Part shown: positions 27,604 through 47,138 of the stretch, piece by piece
Numbering within the stretch: position 1 is the stretch's first letter
How the letters are laid out: each line of letters opens with the position of its first letter
Assembly (NCBI GenBank): GCA_945957175.1
Contig: CAMFJL010000006.1
Span: 30,137-94,136, forward strand
Direction: 5' to 3'
DNA: 64,000 nt
Source: an uncultured Legionellales bacterium
GTDB taxonomy: Bacteria; Pseudomonadota; Gammaproteobacteria; UBA1113
Notes under the pieces: model-generated
Told to the model about the DNA's origin: nothing
Seen by the model: only the letters and a program-made list of their open reading frames with translations
The model's database searches: none
Made by a program: the position numbers and the translations under genes

Positions 27604-27700
27604 GGTGTGTGCCTCATTGGGGGAGATAGAGTCATTATATCACGAGATGATCTCACGATGTTAACCGTAGGGCACGGTCATAACGATACTAAATTGTAGC

Positions 27701-27718
27701 GGCACGGCGTGCCGTGCC
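27701..27718. repeat. GC-rich palindromic element GGCACGGCGTGCCGTGCC (copy 1); an upstream half-copy GTAGGGCACGG lies at 27667-27677
   Basis: A perfect 8+2+8 palindrome 13 nt downstream of the hprK stop, in the hprK-rapZ spacer. The identical 18-mer recurs at 31157-31174. Confidence 0.6.
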
Positions 27719-27730
27719 CCAAAAGGTATG

Positions 27731-28276
27731 TTAAGGATTCAGCAGTTGTTCTTGTCTGGCAATAAATTCATCGGTAGCAAGGTAACCGTGTTGTTTAAGT
27801 ACTTGATTGCGCACAGCTGTTTCAATGAGCACAGCAATGTTACGACCGGGCGCGAGCGGTATAGTGACTTCGGGCACTTCAACATCCAAAATGCTTTGTT
27901 GCCGGTACATCCCTTGAAGCCGGTCCATCTGCGCAAGTTCTTCAGTGGAAAATAGCGCGACGTGCACAATGAGTTGTAAGCGTTTTTCTTGCTTGATAGC
28001 GTTATCGCCGTACATAACGCGAATATTTAAAATACCGAGACCGCGCACTTCTAAAAAATCCTGTAACAGTGGAGGACAACTGCCAATCAAGGTTTCTTTG
28101 TCGATTTGTTTAAAAGTAACCGCATCATCGGCTATCAGGCGATGTCCTCGATTAATGAGACCTAGTGCCAGCTCACTTTTACCGATGCCGCTGGCACCGG
28201 TTAACAAGACGCCAAGGCCCAATACATCGAGAAATACACCATGGAGTGTGGCTGTGTCATCTAAGCTGGTAGGCAT
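27731..28276 (-). CDS. hprK: HPr kinase/phosphorylase, kinase-domain-only short form
   Basis: 181 aa containing the P-loop GASGIGKSE and the HprK C-terminal domain. The upstream space is occupied by ptsN (16-nt overlap), so no N-terminal domain is possible. Confidence 0.65.
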   Translation of the reverse strand: MPTSLDDTATLHGVFLDVLGLGVLLTGASGIGKSELALGLINRGHRLIADDAVTFKQIDKETLIGSCPPLLQDFLEVRGLGILNIRVMYGDNAIKQEKRLQLIVHVALFSTEELAQMDRLQGMYRQQSILDVEVPEVTIPLAPGRNIAVLIETAVRNQVLKQHGYLATDEFIARQEQLLNP

Positions 28277-30468: not shown

Positions 30469-31026
30469 ATGAATATTCCTAATATGTTAACGTTAGCACG
30501 TATTGTATTAATTCCTTTGTTTGTCGTGTTATTTTATCTACCATGGCATTTTACGCAAATGCTAACAACCATCATTTTTATCATTGCGGCGCTTACGGAT
30601 TGGTTAGATGGTTATCTTGCTAGAAGCCTTTCGCAAACCTCAAGATTGGGTGCTTTTTTAGATCCCGTTGCGGATAAATTGATTGTTGTGACTGCATTGA
30701 TTTTGCTAGTAGGTGCGAATCAGTTCCCTTATATTGCGGTGCCTGCGGCAGTGATTGCTGGTCGAGAGATAGCGATATCCGCTTTGCGTGAATGGATGGC
30801 AGAGCTTGGTAAGCGCACAAGTATTGCAGTGTCCATTCTCGGTAAAAGCAAGACAGTTTTACAGATGTTGGCGATCACTTTGTTATTGTTGGGGCGTAGC
30901 GAAAGCATACCCAATTATCATACCTTAGCAATGGTGGGCTATGGCCTGCTTTATGCGGCAGCAGTGATGACCTTGTGGTCCATGGTTATCTACCTTAAAA
31001 CCGCATGGCCGGAATTCCAAAAATAG
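30469..31026 (+). CDS. pgsA: CDP-diacylglycerol--glycerol-3-phosphate 3-phosphatidyltransferase
   Basis: MNIPNMLTLARIVLIPLFV aligns with the E. coli PgsA N-terminus. CDP-alcohol PTase motif D…G…AR…G…D; 185 aa. Confidence 0.8.
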   Translation: MNIPNMLTLARIVLIPLFVVLFYLPWHFTQMLTTIIFIIAALTDWLDGYLARSLSQTSRLGAFLDPVADKLIVVTALILLVGANQFPYIAVPAAVIAGREIAISALREWMAELGKRTSIAVSILGKSKTVLQMLAITLLLLGRSESIPNYHTLAMVGYGLLYAAAVMTLWSMVIYLKTAWPEFQK

Positions 31027-31124
31027 AGGTCCGGTGGTAACGATATGGCCGGAATTCCAAAAATAGAGGTCCGGTGGTAACGATATGGCCGGAATTCCAA
31101 AAATAGAGGTCCGGTGGTAACGAT
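31005..31124 (+). repeat. perfect 3x40-bp tandem direct repeat (unit ATGGCCGGAATTCCAAAAATAGAGGTCCGGTGGTAACGAT)
   Basis: The three units at 31005-31044, 31045-31084 and 31085-31124 are identical. Copy 1 contains the last 22 nt of pgsA (…W P E F Q K stop) plus 18 nt of 3'UTR. Confidence 0.9.
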
Positions 31125-31150
31125 ATTGACTGTAGAGACATAATGCTAAC

Positions 31151-31180
31151 TGTAAGGGCACGGCGTGCCGTGCCCTTACA
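31151..31180. repeat. GC-rich palindromic element (copy 2), extended to a 14+2+14 near-perfect palindrome TGTAAGGGCACGGC-GT-GCCGTGCCCTTACA
   Basis: Contains the same GGCACGGCGTGCCGTGCC core as 27701-27718. It lies between the 40-bp repeat array and the tRNA promoter. Confidence 0.6.
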
Positions 31181-31224
31181 AAAGCGTGCCGCACCTCTGC
31201 AAATAACAAATTCTTAAATAATAC

Positions 31225-31252
31225 TTGACAGCAGATCGCATTTCGCTAAAAT
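31225..31252 (+). promoter_or_regulatory. strong sigma70-like promoter of the tRNA cluster (TTGACA-16-TAAAAT)
   Basis: TTGACA at 31225-31230 and TAAAAT at 31247-31252. tRNA-Gly begins 13 nt downstream of the -10. Confidence 0.55.
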
Positions 31253-31264
31253 AGGCACCTGTCT

Positions 31265-31340
<76 letters not shown>

Positions 31341-31452
31341 ATATTTTTTCACTTTTCTATGCGTTCACATAGCTAAGTTGCTCTGATAAAGCATACAAAA
31401 GTGATTTTTCATCAGATGATAATCACCCAAGATTCGCATCCGATATGCAATT

Positions 31453-31526
31453 GGCTGGGTGGCAGAGTGGTCATGCAGCGGCCTGCAAAGCCGCGTACGC
31501 CGGTTCGATTCCGGCCTCAGCCTCCA
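31453..31526 (+). tRNA. tRNA-Cys (anticodon GCA)
   Basis: 74 nt, GGCTGGGTGGCAGAGTGG…CCTGCAAAGC…GGTTCGATTCCGGCCTCAGCCTCCA. Confidence 0.85.
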
Positions 31527-31546
31527 CGTTTTATGTGCGTTATTAT

Positions 31547-31635
31547 GCCCGGGTGGCGAAACAGGTAGACGCAAGGGACTTAAAATCCCTCGGGACTTAA
31601 ATCCCGTGCCGGTTCGACTCCGGCCCCGGGCACCA
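31547..31635 (+). tRNA. tRNA-Leu (anticodon TAA), long-variable-arm type
   Basis: 89 nt, GCCCGGGTGGCGAAACAGGTAGACGC…GACTTAAAATCCC…GGTTCGACTCCGGCCCCGGGCACCA. Confidence 0.85.
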
Positions 31636-31671
31636 CTTCCACCCTTTTTTCGATTGCATGGAAGCTTCCAC

Positions 31672-32442
31672 ATGCGCGTATTTACGAAAAAAACCAAGTC
31701 TCGGACTAAAATGCAAGTGTCGAGGCGAGTCACGCCTGGGCTCGTTGCCAATCATTCTTGGTCGTTTTGCCGTCGCTTTATGTGGCCATTGGCAGCGCTT
31801 TTTGCAATCATCATCATGTTTTACCTCCATGTCACCGTGCTTTTTCCTATCACAGCTGTGCGGGTTTACGACCCTGGCCTTCATATCGATCAACAAAGTA
31901 TTGTGAGTACCGTGAACCCCTTAGTCGACAATGGCTTTTTTGGTACCAATTTGGGACATATTAAAACTGCATTACAAGCCTTGCCTTGGGTTGCCATGGT
32001 GGATGTGTCAAGGCAATGGCCGGGGCGTATTGTGATCCATTTGTATGAGCGTGTGCCTTTAGCCAGGTGGAACCTGAATGACTTAGTCACCGCCGACGGT
32101 ATTATTTTTACGCCAGCCACAACGGACAGTATCCCTGACTTACCCCATTTATATGGGCCGCCGACTGAGGTTTTGCGCATGACTCAAGCGTATCTACGAT
32201 TTGTGACTGAGCTTGCGCCTTTACCACTGACTATCACCGCGGTGCGTTTATCTGAAAGATTATCGTGGGATTTACGCTTATCCAATGGTATGATACTCAA
32301 ATTAGGGCGGACCCAGATGCATGAGCGTTTGGTGCGTTTTGTGAAAGTTTACCCTCAAGTTTTTGCAAATAACAATAACAAAGCGGTGTATGTGGATTTA
32401 CGTTACAATCACGGCATGGCTGTGCGTTGGGCGAGTACCTAG
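31672..32442 (+). CDS. ftsQ: cell division protein FtsQ
   Basis: Short cytoplasmic N-terminus, one TM helix, then POTRA/FtsQ domains. It immediately precedes ftsA-ftsZ. I placed the start after the tRNAs at the ATG at 31672; the ORF-track N-extension runs through the tRNA genes. Confidence 0.65.
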   Translation: MRVFTKKTKSRTKMQVSRRVTPGLVANHSWSFCRRFMWPLAALFAIIIMFYLHVTVLFPITAVRVYDPGLHIDQQSIVSTVNPLVDNGFFGTNLGHIKTALQALPWVAMVDVSRQWPGRIVIHLYERVPLARWNLNDLVTADGIIFTPATTDSIPDLPHLYGPPTEVLRMTQAYLRFVTELAPLPLTITAVRLSERLSWDLRLSNGMILKLGRTQMHERLVRFVKVYPQVFANNNNKAVYVDLRYNHGMAVRWAST

Positions 32443-32487
32443 GGTTGTAAGTTAGGTTCATTTAGATGTGAGAGTTAAGGATCATCC

Positions 32488-33720
32488 ATGGCAAAACGTC
32501 GTGAAAAAAATATCCTAGTTGCATTGGATATTGGCAATTCAAAAATTGCCGCAGTGGTTGGTGAGATTCATGAAGATGGAAAGCTTGAGATTGTGGGCTT
32601 TGGTTCACATCCGTCAAAAGGCTTGAAACGAGGTGTCGTTGTGCACATTGATGCAACCATTGCATCGATTCAACGTGCAGTAGAAGAAGCGGAACTCATG
32701 ACGGGTTATCGCATTCATTCGGCATACACAGGTATTGCGGGTAATCACATCCAGGGCTTAAATTCGCATGGTATTGTGGCGATTAAAGCACAAGAAGTTA
32801 CAGAAGTTGATATTGAGCGCGTGCTGGATGCGGCAAAAGCGGTGGCTATCCCAGCGGATCAACAAATTCTACACGTATTACCACAAGAATTTATTATTGA
32901 CAGCCAACGTGGTATTCGTGAACCGATCGGGATGTCTGGCGTACGACTTGAATCACGCGTACATATGGTCGTGGGCTCTGTAAGCGCTGCACAAAATATT
33001 ATTAAATGCGTTGAGCGTTGTGGCTTAGATGTTGCGGATATTATTTTAGAACAAGTTGCTTCAAGTTATGCTGTGTTAACGGATGATGAAAAAGAATTAG
33101 GGGTGGCGCTTGTTGATATGGGCGGCGGTACATGTGATATTGCAGTCTATGTCGACGGGGCCATTGTCCATACAGCGGTTATACCGATTGCGGGCGATCA
33201 AGTGACGAATGATGTGGCGGTTGCTTTGCGTATTCCAACGCCGATTGCAGAAGAATTAAAGCGTCAATATGCATGTACTGAGGCAAAGCTCGGTGACGAT
33301 GCCGATGAGTTTTTACCAGCGCTTCCAGCCATGGAAAGACTCAGTAAACAAATTAGTCGGCGTATGCTCGCGCAAGTTGTCGAACCACGCTATGAAGAAT
33401 TATTAGCGCTTGTACAAGCTGAGTTGATTCGCGCGGGTGTTTTTGAGCTTATCTCTGCGGGTGTCGTGTTAACAGGCGGTTCTGCTAAAATGCCAGGTTT
33501 GATTGCGTTGGCGGAAGATTGTTTGCAAGTGCCTGTACGTTTAGGCGTGCCTTTGCATACTGAGGGTATTCAAGCTATCGTGAGCGATCCTATTTATGCC
33601 ACGGGCGTTGGTTTGCTGCATTATGGTTTAAAGCATCAGCATAGTGGTTCACAGCATGCGCCACGTGAGACAAAGGGGTTATTTGGGCGGATGCGTCAGT
33701 GGTTTCAAGGTCAGTTTTAG
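32488..33720 (+). CDS. ftsA: cell division protein FtsA
   Basis: 410-aa actin-fold protein (LDIGNSKI…, DMGGGTCDIAV). Confidence 0.85.
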   Translation: MAKRREKNILVALDIGNSKIAAVVGEIHEDGKLEIVGFGSHPSKGLKRGVVVHIDATIASIQRAVEEAELMTGYRIHSAYTGIAGNHIQGLNSHGIVAIKAQEVTEVDIERVLDAAKAVAIPADQQILHVLPQEFIIDSQRGIREPIGMSGVRLESRVHMVVGSVSAAQNIIKCVERCGLDVADIILEQVASSYAVLTDDEKELGVALVDMGGGTCDIAVYVDGAIVHTAVIPIAGDQVTNDVAVALRIPTPIAEELKRQYACTEAKLGDDADEFLPALPAMERLSKQISRRMLAQVVEPRYEELLALVQAELIRAGVFELISAGVVLTGGSAKMPGLIALAEDCLQVPVRLGVPLHTEGIQAIVSDPIYATGVGLLHYGLKHQHSGSQHAPRETKGLFGRMRQWFQGQF

Positions 33721-33740
33721 TTTTTTGAGGAGTCAGTTTT

Positions 33741-34913
33741 ATGTCAGCAATGATAGATAATAGGCATCAAGCCCGTATCAAAGTGATTGGGGTTGGCGGC
33801 GGTGGCGGCAATGCAGTTGAACATATGATGTCCGAAGCTTTTGAAGGCGTCGAATTTCTCGTTGCAAACACCGATGCGCAAGTGCTGCGTCGCTCCTCAG
33901 CGCCTACAATGCAACTCGGTGAGCAAATTACCAAAGGTTTGGGTGCCGGTGCAAACCCTGATATTGGTAGACAAGCAGCAGAAGAAGATTTAGAAAAGCT
34001 GCGTGTATTTTTAGCCGATACCGACATGATTTTCATTACAGCAGGTATGGGCGGCGGTACAGGTACTGGTGCTGCACCTGTTATTGCTAAACTTGCGAAA
34101 GATATGGGGATTTTAACGGTTGCAGTTGTCACTAAACCTTTTGCGTTTGAAGGTAAAGCCAGACTGCATATTGCAGAGCAAGGCATGCAGTCGCTTGGTC
34201 AATATGTCGATTCGTTGATTACTATCCCGAATAACAAATTATTGAGCGTGCTTGGTAAAAATATGACCTTGCTCAACGCATTTAAAGCTGCAAACAATGT
34301 ATTGCATGGTGCGGTTCAAGGTATTGCCGAGTTAATTACGCGTCCTGGACTTATTAACGTTGACTTTGCTGACGTGCGTACCGTGATGGCGGAAATGGGT
34401 ATGGCAATGATGGGTACGGGTATTGCTTCAGGTGAAAACCGTGCGCGCGATGCAGCGGAAGCAGCTATTGCGAGTCCCTTGCTTGAAGATATTAATTTGG
34501 TGGGTGCAAAAGGGGTCTTGGTTAATATCACAGCTGGCCTCAATATGTCCATCGGTGAATTTGAGGAAGTGGGTGAGGCGGTTAAGTGCTTTACTTCAGA
34601 TAATGCAACGGTTGTTGTGGGTACTGTTATCGATCCCGACATGGGCGACGAAATGCGCGTTACCGTAGTTGCGACAGGCTTAGGGCGAGTAGAGCCTGAA
34701 GCACCTGTTGTAGCAGCAACACCTTTAAGGCCGGGACAGTTACGTCAAGCAGAAACAGGCGCGATTGATTATCAACGTTTTGAGCGTCCTGCGGTGTTAC
34801 GTAAACAAGCGCCTGCGAGTCGCGCGCAATCAAGTCATACAAGTTCACAACAGCAGGATTTAGATTACTTGGATATTCCCGCCTTTTTACGTAAACAAGA
34901 AGAGGTTTCTTAA
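33741..34913 (+). CDS. ftsZ: cell division GTPase FtsZ
   Basis: The GGGTGTG tubulin signature and the NTD/CTD pattern; 390 aa; C-terminal DIPAFLRKQ peptide. Confidence 0.9.
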   Translation: MSAMIDNRHQARIKVIGVGGGGGNAVEHMMSEAFEGVEFLVANTDAQVLRRSSAPTMQLGEQITKGLGAGANPDIGRQAAEEDLEKLRVFLADTDMIFITAGMGGGTGTGAAPVIAKLAKDMGILTVAVVTKPFAFEGKARLHIAEQGMQSLGQYVDSLITIPNNKLLSVLGKNMTLLNAFKAANNVLHGAVQGIAELITRPGLINVDFADVRTVMAEMGMAMMGTGIASGENRARDAAEAAIASPLLEDINLVGAKGVLVNITAGLNMSIGEFEEVGEAVKCFTSDNATVVVGTVIDPDMGDEMRVTVVATGLGRVEPEAPVVAATPLRPGQLRQAETGAIDYQRFERPAVLRKQAPASRAQSSHTSSQQQDLDYLDIPAFLRKQEEVS

Positions 34914-46151: not shown

Positions 46152-46364
46152 TGTATTGAAACCTTGTTATTTGACTACAATTGTGATATAACGTCGCGAC
46201 GCTCTATGTTCCAAGGGAACGTAGAGTGAAGTATAGACGAAAACACACACTTATGGTTAACACTATTTTGGGTGCCTAAGGTCTTTCCCTGTTTAGCATA
46301 AGCAAGGGATTACTTAGGTGAAATCGTGTTGTAAGTGGAGGCTTAACCCAAGAGGAGTAGATAC

Positions 46365-47138
46365 ATGGCCCACGTGAGCTTACGAGAAATGTTACAAGAA
46401 GGTGTCCACTTTGGTCACCAAACCCGTTATTGGAATCCTAAAATGGCCCCCTTTATTTTTGGGGTTAATCGCAAGATTCATATCATCGATTTAGAGCAAA
46501 CGCAGCGATTATTTGAAGATGCGCTCAATGCTATCAGCCGTATTGCTAGCAATCGCGGTAAGATTCTTTTTGTAGGTACGAAATACGCTGCACAAGATGC
46601 TGTGCGAGAAGCTGCAGAAAGCTGTGGTATGCCTTATGTCAACCATCGTTGGTTAGGTGGTATGTTGACTAATTACAAAACCATACGTCAACAAATCCGT
46701 CGGTTGAACGATTTAATTCGTATGAGTGTCGATGGTACCTTAAAGCACTTAACGAAGAAAGAAGGCTTAACTATCATGCGCGAGCAAGAAAAGTTAGAAC
46801 GAAGCCTTGGCGGGATTAAAGAGATGGGTGGTTTACCCGATGCTTTATTTATTATCGATGTCGGTCATGAAGATATTGCGGTCAAAGAAGCCAAACGTCT
46901 TGGTATTCCCGTGATTGGTATCGTTGATACCAACAATACCCCCGATGATATCGATTACATTATCCCTGGTAATGATGATGCAACGCGCGCTATTCGCCTT
47001 TACTGCAATAAAGCAGCAGAAGTGATTAACCAAGCCAAAGAAGCCTTGCAACTGTCTCAAGGCGGTGCTCAAAAAGATGACGTTGCTATAGACGCACCTG
47101 CGACACCTGCGCCTGAAGCACCTGCTGACGAAGCGTAA
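46365..47138 (+). CDS. rpsB: 30S ribosomal protein S2
   Basis: [27 protein letters not shown] is the canonical S2 N-terminus. Confidence 0.9.

Follow-up and report, generated by a model that had tools for sequence, protein, structure and literature searches.

The 3′ end of pgsA in this uncultured Legionellales bacterium carries three perfect head-to-tail copies of a 40-nt unit, and we consider it fairly probable (roughly 0.65) that these copies are a young, lineage-specific tandem triplication that arose by replication slippage or template switching and is most likely neutral. As an addition to the original prediction, which had described the repeat itself, alignment to relatives suggests that a REP/MITE-like element inserted into the pgsA stop codon and that the array lies at its margin.

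The array and the end of pgsA

The array lies between pgsA and a tRNA operon, in a 64-kb stretch of DNA that was analysed as a whole and is referred to here as the window:

31005..31126: perfect tandem array, 3.05 copies of ATGGCCGGAATTCCAAAAATAGAGGTCCGGTGGTAACGAT (Tandem Repeats Finder and pattern search)
30469..31026, plus strand: pgsA (CDP-diacylglycerol--glycerol-3-phosphate 3-phosphatidyltransferase), 185 aa, ending ...YLKTAWPEFQK* (NCBIfam TIGR00560)
31225..31252, plus strand: sigma-70 promoter of the tRNA operon, TTGACA, 16-nt spacer, TAAAAT (11 of 12 consensus matches)
31265..31635, plus strand: tRNA-Gly(GCC) at 31265-31340, tRNA-Cys(GCA) at 31453-31526, and tRNA-Leu(TAA) at 31547-31635 (ARAGORN and Rfam)

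Tandem Repeats Finder, run on the 64-kb window, reported a period of 40, 3.0 copies, 100% matches, no indels, and a score of 244, against just 66 for the second-ranked array. The units occupy 31005-31044, 31045-31084, and 31085-31124 and are followed by AT. Because this AT repeats the first two bases of the unit, the perfect 3 x 40-bp array proposed originally ends at 31126, 2 nt beyond the end first given. A pattern search for the 40-nt unit that allowed up to three mismatches returned three matches (starting at 31005, 31045, and 31085), all perfect, where none were expected from 100 shuffles, and found no diverged or extra copy elsewhere in the 64-kb window. Sensitive blastn likewise found no further copy in the window, so the unit is not a dispersed repeat there. 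A 24-nt core of the unit had no exact match in JGI metagenomes.

With near-identical head-to-tail units in the range of about 10-100 bp, the array has the structure of a minisatellite or VNTR, and it resembles such loci in its position at a gene end and spacer and in its perfect repeats, each tens of bp long. Minisatellite/VNTR loci are made and resized by slipped-strand mispairing or unequal recombination, for which no function is needed. In bacteria, they serve MLVA typing, for example in Legionella pneumophila and Coxiella burnetii.

The PgsA protein matches TIGR00560 at 181 bits (cutoff 109), and its C-terminus agrees with the YLKAAWPEL/F-type ending that is conserved among 80 gammaproteobacterial homologues. 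Unit 1 is therefore the original gene end. It comprises 22 nt of coding sequence and 18 nt after the stop, as first described, with the TAG at 31024-31026; the 18 nt, which had been taken for native 3′UTR, appear instead to be the left end of a lineage-specific insertion. Each unit contains the palindrome GGAATTCC once, as predicted, and in pgsA this sequence reads TGG-CCG-GAA-TTC, the codons of the conserved C-terminal W-P-E-F. Since the first array copy retains the native coding sequence, the PgsA protein is unchanged by the array, and copies 2 and 3 are non-coding. The original suggestion that contraction below one copy would alter the PgsA C-terminus describes an unrealistic route: recombination among units never involves the junction between the coding sequence and unit 1, which insulates PgsA from changes in copy number.

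The 11-codon mini-ORF MAGIPKIEVRW* that had been noticed in another frame is indeed present in each unit, and a weak GGTGG lies 7 nt upstream of its ATG in units 2 and 3. That the repeat encodes peptides, either as three serial 11-aa mini-ORFs (MAGIPKIEVRW) or as a read-through extension of PgsA, is nevertheless exceedingly implausible. The ATG is composed of the A of a GCA codon and the TG of the TGG (Trp) codon, out of frame with pgsA, the reading frame shows no conservation, the relatives lack the sequence, and no gene caller reported the mini-ORF in any assembly.

In the 30950-31270 region, which includes the array, Rfam returned nothing at E <= 10, and the array region had no match at the gathering threshold. 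No intrinsic terminator was called between pgsA and the tRNA operon. The gene neighbours upstream of pgsA are rapZ, a short hprK, ptsN, hpf, and aroC, and ftsQ-ftsA-ftsZ stand downstream of the tRNA genes; the order pgsA-Gly-Cys-Leu is common to many gammaproteobacteria.

Several other features of the window stood out. In the region 31636-34913, the ftsQ-ftsA-ftsZ genes begin 36 nt after tRNA-Leu, without mur/ddl genes ahead of them. The spacer between tRNA-Gly and tRNA-Cys contains a 25-nt inverted repeat (31349-31404, 80% complementary, 6-nt gap). The HPr kinase homologue (27731-28276) has only 181 aa and matches the C-terminal domain alone (Hpr_kinase_C); it is located within an hpf-ptsN-hprK-rapZ-EIIA(Man)-HPr cluster. 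All domains of the large NAD-specific bacterial glutamate dehydrogenase (Bac_GDH) are present in a 1613-aa ORF (19311-24152), and the 319-aa ORF beside it (24383-25342) has no Pfam match. The sole non-tRNA RNA family match in the window (Rfam) is a t44 RNA at 46226-46347 (51.6 bits, gathering score 44), directly upstream of an ORF (46365-47138) that we take to be rpsB from gene order alone.

Copy number in public assemblies

Exact-protein look-ups identified 14 public contigs that encode an identical PgsA. The listed contigs derive from nine samples in ENA and Logan (L001-L006, L087-L089, L243-L246), and a tenth sample was reported to share one contig. Over as much as 6.5 kb, they are 100% identical to the window; the exception is one low-coverage 784-nt contig that has a single mismatch. 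The 90% clusters of PgsA, FtsA, and AroC have a single member each. From these sequences, the organism appears to be essentially clonal in public data.

The array is spanned with exactly three copies in ERZ12289976, ERZ12289964, and ERZ12289970 (metaSPAdes; L001, L002, L244). Including the window, four array-spanning assemblies all have three copies, yet they represent one clone that is 100% identical over kilobases. One contig of ERZ17996604 (L003/L246) has the left flank followed by 135 nt of pure repeat, or three complete units plus 15 nt from the start of a fourth, at which point the contig ends. It is therefore incompatible with a 122-nt allele and is the only sign of copy-number variation, a hint that comes from a contig end. 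Two Logan contigs (k=31) end 30 nt into unit 1, L006 ends 55 nt into the array, and L088 begins 9 nt before the end of the array. Such breaks are what a loop in a de Bruijn graph would produce and imply at least two copies in those samples. The array accounts for the breaks at the pgsA/tRNA junction in many short-read assemblies of this organism.

The repeat is real. It is unlikely, in our estimation, that its copy number is an assembly artefact, in which case the repeat would exist but the number three would be the choice of the assembler, and the true number would differ or vary within samples. Short-read assemblies were used throughout, five or more contigs are broken within the array or at its edge (L003, L004, L005, L006, L088), and the 135 nt of repeat in L003/L246 clash with a 122-nt array. 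Against this, the array measures 122 nt in each of three independent assemblies as well as in the window, and 150-nt reads can span this length. Reasoning from the point at which L006 breaks, the minimal path for k=55 would be 82 nt, and the assembled 122 nt are one loop longer, hence would have needed read support and would not result from default collapse.

VNTR loci are defined by polymorphism, and the array is unlike them in that the assemblies available here represent one clone, with a fourth copy hinted at by one truncated contig. By analogy with other perfect 40-bp arrays, this one should readily gain and lose units.

At one contig end, positions 1-48 of L002/L245 (ERZ12289970 NODE_1385) have no counterpart in the window. 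The sequence there, …GTCTCGTGGGCTCGGAGATGTGTATAAGAGACAG, is that of the Nextera transposase adapter and represents adapter contamination.

A probable REP/MITE-like insertion in the pgsA stop codon

A homology search identified three PgsA relatives at 88-90% identity, all in Logan assemblies (L092, L093, and L094). Other PgsA matches reach at most 72%; among those with a name, the protein of a 'Legionellales bacterium' MAG comes closest (71%). At the DNA level, pgsA of the three relatives is about 72-77% identical to that of the window (about 23-28% diverged). All three lack array copies as well as the 18 nt found after the stop in the window, which bears out the original proposal that the repeat is young and not a fixed old relic.

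The spacing downstream of pgsA also differs. In L092, pgsA ends with …GCATGGCCAGAATTTCAAAAATAA, and the TTGACA of the tRNA-Gly promoter begins 4 nt on; in L094, the distance from the pgsA stop to the tRNA-Gly promoter is 20 nt. The same distance is 198 nt in the window, and alignment shows that the promoter of the tRNA operon is conserved in both L092 and L094. L093 has a different, convergent gene after pgsA and no tRNA genes. Aligned to the relatives, the window has ~195 nt of lineage-specific DNA between the end of pgsA and the promoter, comprising an insertion of ~115 nt and 80 nt from the triplication. The pgsA stop codon is TAA in all three close relatives and TAG in the window, and the G of the latter was probably supplied by the inserted DNA. 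A deletion in both relatives, instead of an insertion in the lineage of the window, is a less likely alternative at a divergence of about 23-28% in pgsA DNA.

We noted further differences at this locus among the close relatives. In L092 (2258-3507) and L094 (1136-2310), the same tRNA cluster precedes ispA-like and yciO/Sua5-like genes, and the spacer between tRNA-Gly and tRNA-Cys is much longer than in the window and different in sequence. In L093, no tRNA genes follow pgsA. Synteny among these close relatives is thus broken at the pgsA/tRNA locus.

The features of the insertion are:

31024..31026, plus strand: pgsA stop codon TAG, the G of which (possibly the A too) would come from inserted DNA, judging by the position of the junction
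31025..31198: lineage-specific inserted DNA, absent at the orthologous site in L092 and L094
31105..31198: the insert with the array collapsed, 94 nt, with inverted ends AGAGGTCCGG (31105-31114) and CCGCACCTCT (31189-31198)
31151..31180: perfect 14-bp GC-rich hairpin TGTAAGGGCACGGC-GT-GCCGTGCCCTTACA, a GTAG-type REP-like palindrome (inverted repeat, 100% complementary)
31199..31224, plus strand: A/T-rich right flank GCAAATAACAAATTCTTAAATAATAC, alignable with the end of pgsA and the spacer in L094 and L092
27667..27725: second, partial REP-like copy, GTAG-GGCACGG…GTAG-CGGCACGGCGTGCCGTGCCCC, in the rapZ-hprK spacer (19-nt exact core match)

The left end of the insert is present three times (31025-34, 31065-74, and 31105-14) because it falls inside the repeat unit. 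The ends AGAGGTCCGG and CCGCACCTCT are complementary at 9 of 10 positions, which was equalled in 40 of 2000 shuffles (p about 0.02). For the 94-nt insert with the array collapsed, the predicted fold has a free energy of -22 kcal/mol (z = -4.7); in this fold, the two ends pair with each other and enclose the central hairpin. The flanks, CAAAAAT (31018-31024) on the left and G-CAAAT (31199-31204) on the right, form an imperfect target duplication, and the insertion junction can for this reason not be fixed to the base. Based on its alignment, the right flank GCAAATAACAAATTCTTAAATAATAC probably derives from the ancestral pgsA end (…CAAAAATAA…) and spacer and would be the displaced original stop region.

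The insert is like bacterial MITEs (NEMIS/Correia, RUP, and ERIC, with the Rickettsia RPEs as a related palindromic case) in its small size (about 94 nt), its lack of coding sequence, its terminal inverted repeats, and its stable fold. It is also like them in its insertion at or into a gene end without destruction of the gene, at a site between pgsA and the tRNA promoter that is empty in L092 and L094. Unlike in MITEs, its inverted ends comprise 10 nt (typically 15-30 nt), the target duplication is imperfect, and one full copy was seen: no further copy with the same ends is present in the window, in the ±10 kb extensions (L095, L097), or in the contigs of the relatives. About 84 kb of the genome thus contain one copy of the full putative element and one partial relative. 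The empty orthologous sites and the modest inverted ends suggest that the 94-nt insert is mobile in nature. No transposase, including RAYT, was found among the scanned or Pfam-annotated genes of the window and ±10 kb.

The hairpin at 31151-31180 has the form of REPs, a GC-rich palindromic stem-loop of 20-40 nt, with a perfect 14-bp stem. It carries a variant tag, GTAA...TTAC, in which mirrored G>A and C>T changes keep the pairing. Having no U-tract, it is not a canonical intrinsic terminator. A 19-nt exact core (31156-31174) recurs at 27701, in the partial copy, where the GTAG tag is present (27696-27720), and the local alignment score of the 27667-27725 segment is 45, compared to 14.9 ± 2.2 for shuffles. 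The surrounding rapZ-hprK spacer (27604-27730) has 127 nt in the window versus 25 nt in L093 and contains two GTAG+GGCACGG motifs; by this comparison, it holds another lineage-specific palindromic insertion, 3.4 kb away from the one at pgsA. The two hairpin copies in about 84 kb of genome are both intergenic.

The hairpin is not confined to this organism. Its core GGCACGGCGTGCCGTGCCC occurs exactly in at least 120 JGI metagenome contigs and in 24 IMG/VR viral contigs. Among the matches listed, the carriers range from 37% to 70% in contig GC, and some have 3-10 copies. Aligning 165 metagenomic and viral occurrences of the core gave the consensus GTAG-G-core-C-TAC with random flanks, and in another organism (L165), tandem arrays of 117-122 nt are built around this hairpin. 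A literature search by hairpin sequence returned only unrelated rat primer matches. L092 has a GTAG hairpin of its own, with a different stem, after another gene.

By its sequence, the hairpin would thus be a compact GTAG-tagged palindrome, the signature of the GTAG REP super-family (PMC3733652). Published GTAG REPs often give flanking ORFs their TAG stops (Di Nocera et al. 2013, PMC3733652), and their clusters show tandem reiteration that includes flanking DNA (PMC3733652). The site described here is like these GTAG REP clusters and BIMEs (PMC3733652; Nunvar 2010, PMC2817692; Ton-Hoang 2012, PMC3333891) in having a GC-rich GTAG-type palindrome after a stop codon, with inserted DNA that seems to supply the TAG and a reiterated unit that takes in flanking DNA. 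It is unlike REP clusters in that the 40-nt unit excludes the strong GTAG hairpin (31151-31180) and has only a weak one, that two copies are found in 84 kb where genomes typically have >100, and that no RAYT gene was seen.

Origin and significance of the triplication

The comparisons suggest a three-step history. Ancestrally, as in L092 and L094, 4-20 nt would have separated a pgsA TAA from the -35 box of the tRNA-Gly/Cys/Leu promoter. The pgsA stop codon would then have received a REP/MITE-like insertion, about 94-115 nt of non-coding DNA with 10-nt inverted ends and a central GTAG-type GC-rich hairpin, and the first bases of this element would have regenerated a TAG stop. Finally, 40 nt across the left junction, in a structure that is directly visible in the array, would have been duplicated twice, head to tail, using 2 nt of AT microhomology and possibly helped by a weak hairpin between the pgsA end and the left arm. 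Once two 40-nt copies had been made, slipped-strand mispairing or unequal exchange could have added the third.

The order of the last two steps follows from the composition of the unit. It combines about 20 nt of the pgsA end with about 20 nt of the left end of the insert and straddles the left junction; the duplication is therefore later than the insertion. The 2-nt microhomology is between the AT that opens the unit and the one that follows unit 3, and it fits what a template switch 40 nt backwards would use. The slippage origin originally proposed for the array is consistent with this microhomology at the array ends, and the recent origin that had been argued from zero divergence is now indicated both by the perfect copies and by their absence from relatives. 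The pgsA end (CCGGAATTC) and the insert arm (GAGGTCCGG) are predicted to pair across the junction in a weak hairpin (-4.8 kcal/mol); a role for this hairpin in slippage is speculative. As a driver of slippage, the hairpin of a single unit folds no better than shuffles (z = -1.1).

Alternatively, the array could be a nascent REP cluster made by REP-processing enzymes, with RAYT cleavage and rejoining at the (A/G)TAG arm and BIME-like growth. The unit is centred on the left end of the element, and this left end starts with ATAG-AGGTCCGG, like a diverged GTAG REP arm; this left arm agrees with the GTAGGGGCACGG consensus at 8 of 12 positions, and the 117-122-nt arrays of L165 are built around the same hairpin. 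We consider such an origin distinctly unlikely, as the actual GTAG hairpin lies outside the unit, ordinary slippage needs only the 2-nt microhomology, no second junction-centred array was seen, and no RAYT gene is present among the scanned or Pfam-annotated genes of the window or the surrounding 20 kb. If it were true, the array would represent a first step of array growth in which the arm is reiterated together with 20 nt of the pgsA coding end; it would show REP arrays capturing flanking, even coding, DNA and such junctions turning hyper-variable in an otherwise monomorphic organism.

Another possibility is that the array acts as a cis-element, either as three stacked 3′UTR hairpins that stabilise the mRNA or insulate the tRNA promoter from pgsA read-through, or as iterated protein-binding sites. 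It is located between a coding sequence and a strong promoter, the array and the downstream hairpin are together predicted to fold at -82.7 kcal/mol (z = -5.0 relative to shuffles), and effects of REPs and MITEs on mRNA stability are known (PMC3733652). This z-score, however, stems largely from repeating a partly self-complementary unit, as the value of -1.1 for a single unit illustrates. The array is also absent in all close relatives, its perfect identity points to recency and not to purifying selection, and it has neither an Rfam match nor a terminator signature. We therefore regard a cis-acting function as very improbable. A role in helical phasing is unsupported by the arithmetic of the spacing, in which 115 nt correspond to about 11 turns and 195 nt to about 18.6 turns.

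The young triplication by slippage or template switching remains the reading we prefer. Nothing points to a function for the array, and its neutrality, which we assume from the lack of conservation, is most likely.

The array is a fresh instance of well-known phenomena, an ordinary tandem repeat that is probably neutral. Its site stacks three known processes: insertion into a stop codon with the stop regenerated, separation of a gene from a tRNA promoter, and a tandem duplication that spans the junction. Because the public contigs examined otherwise match the window at 100%, the perfect 40-bp array is the likeliest place for strain-level differences in this organism, and it could become a typing marker, the practical value of which would be modest.
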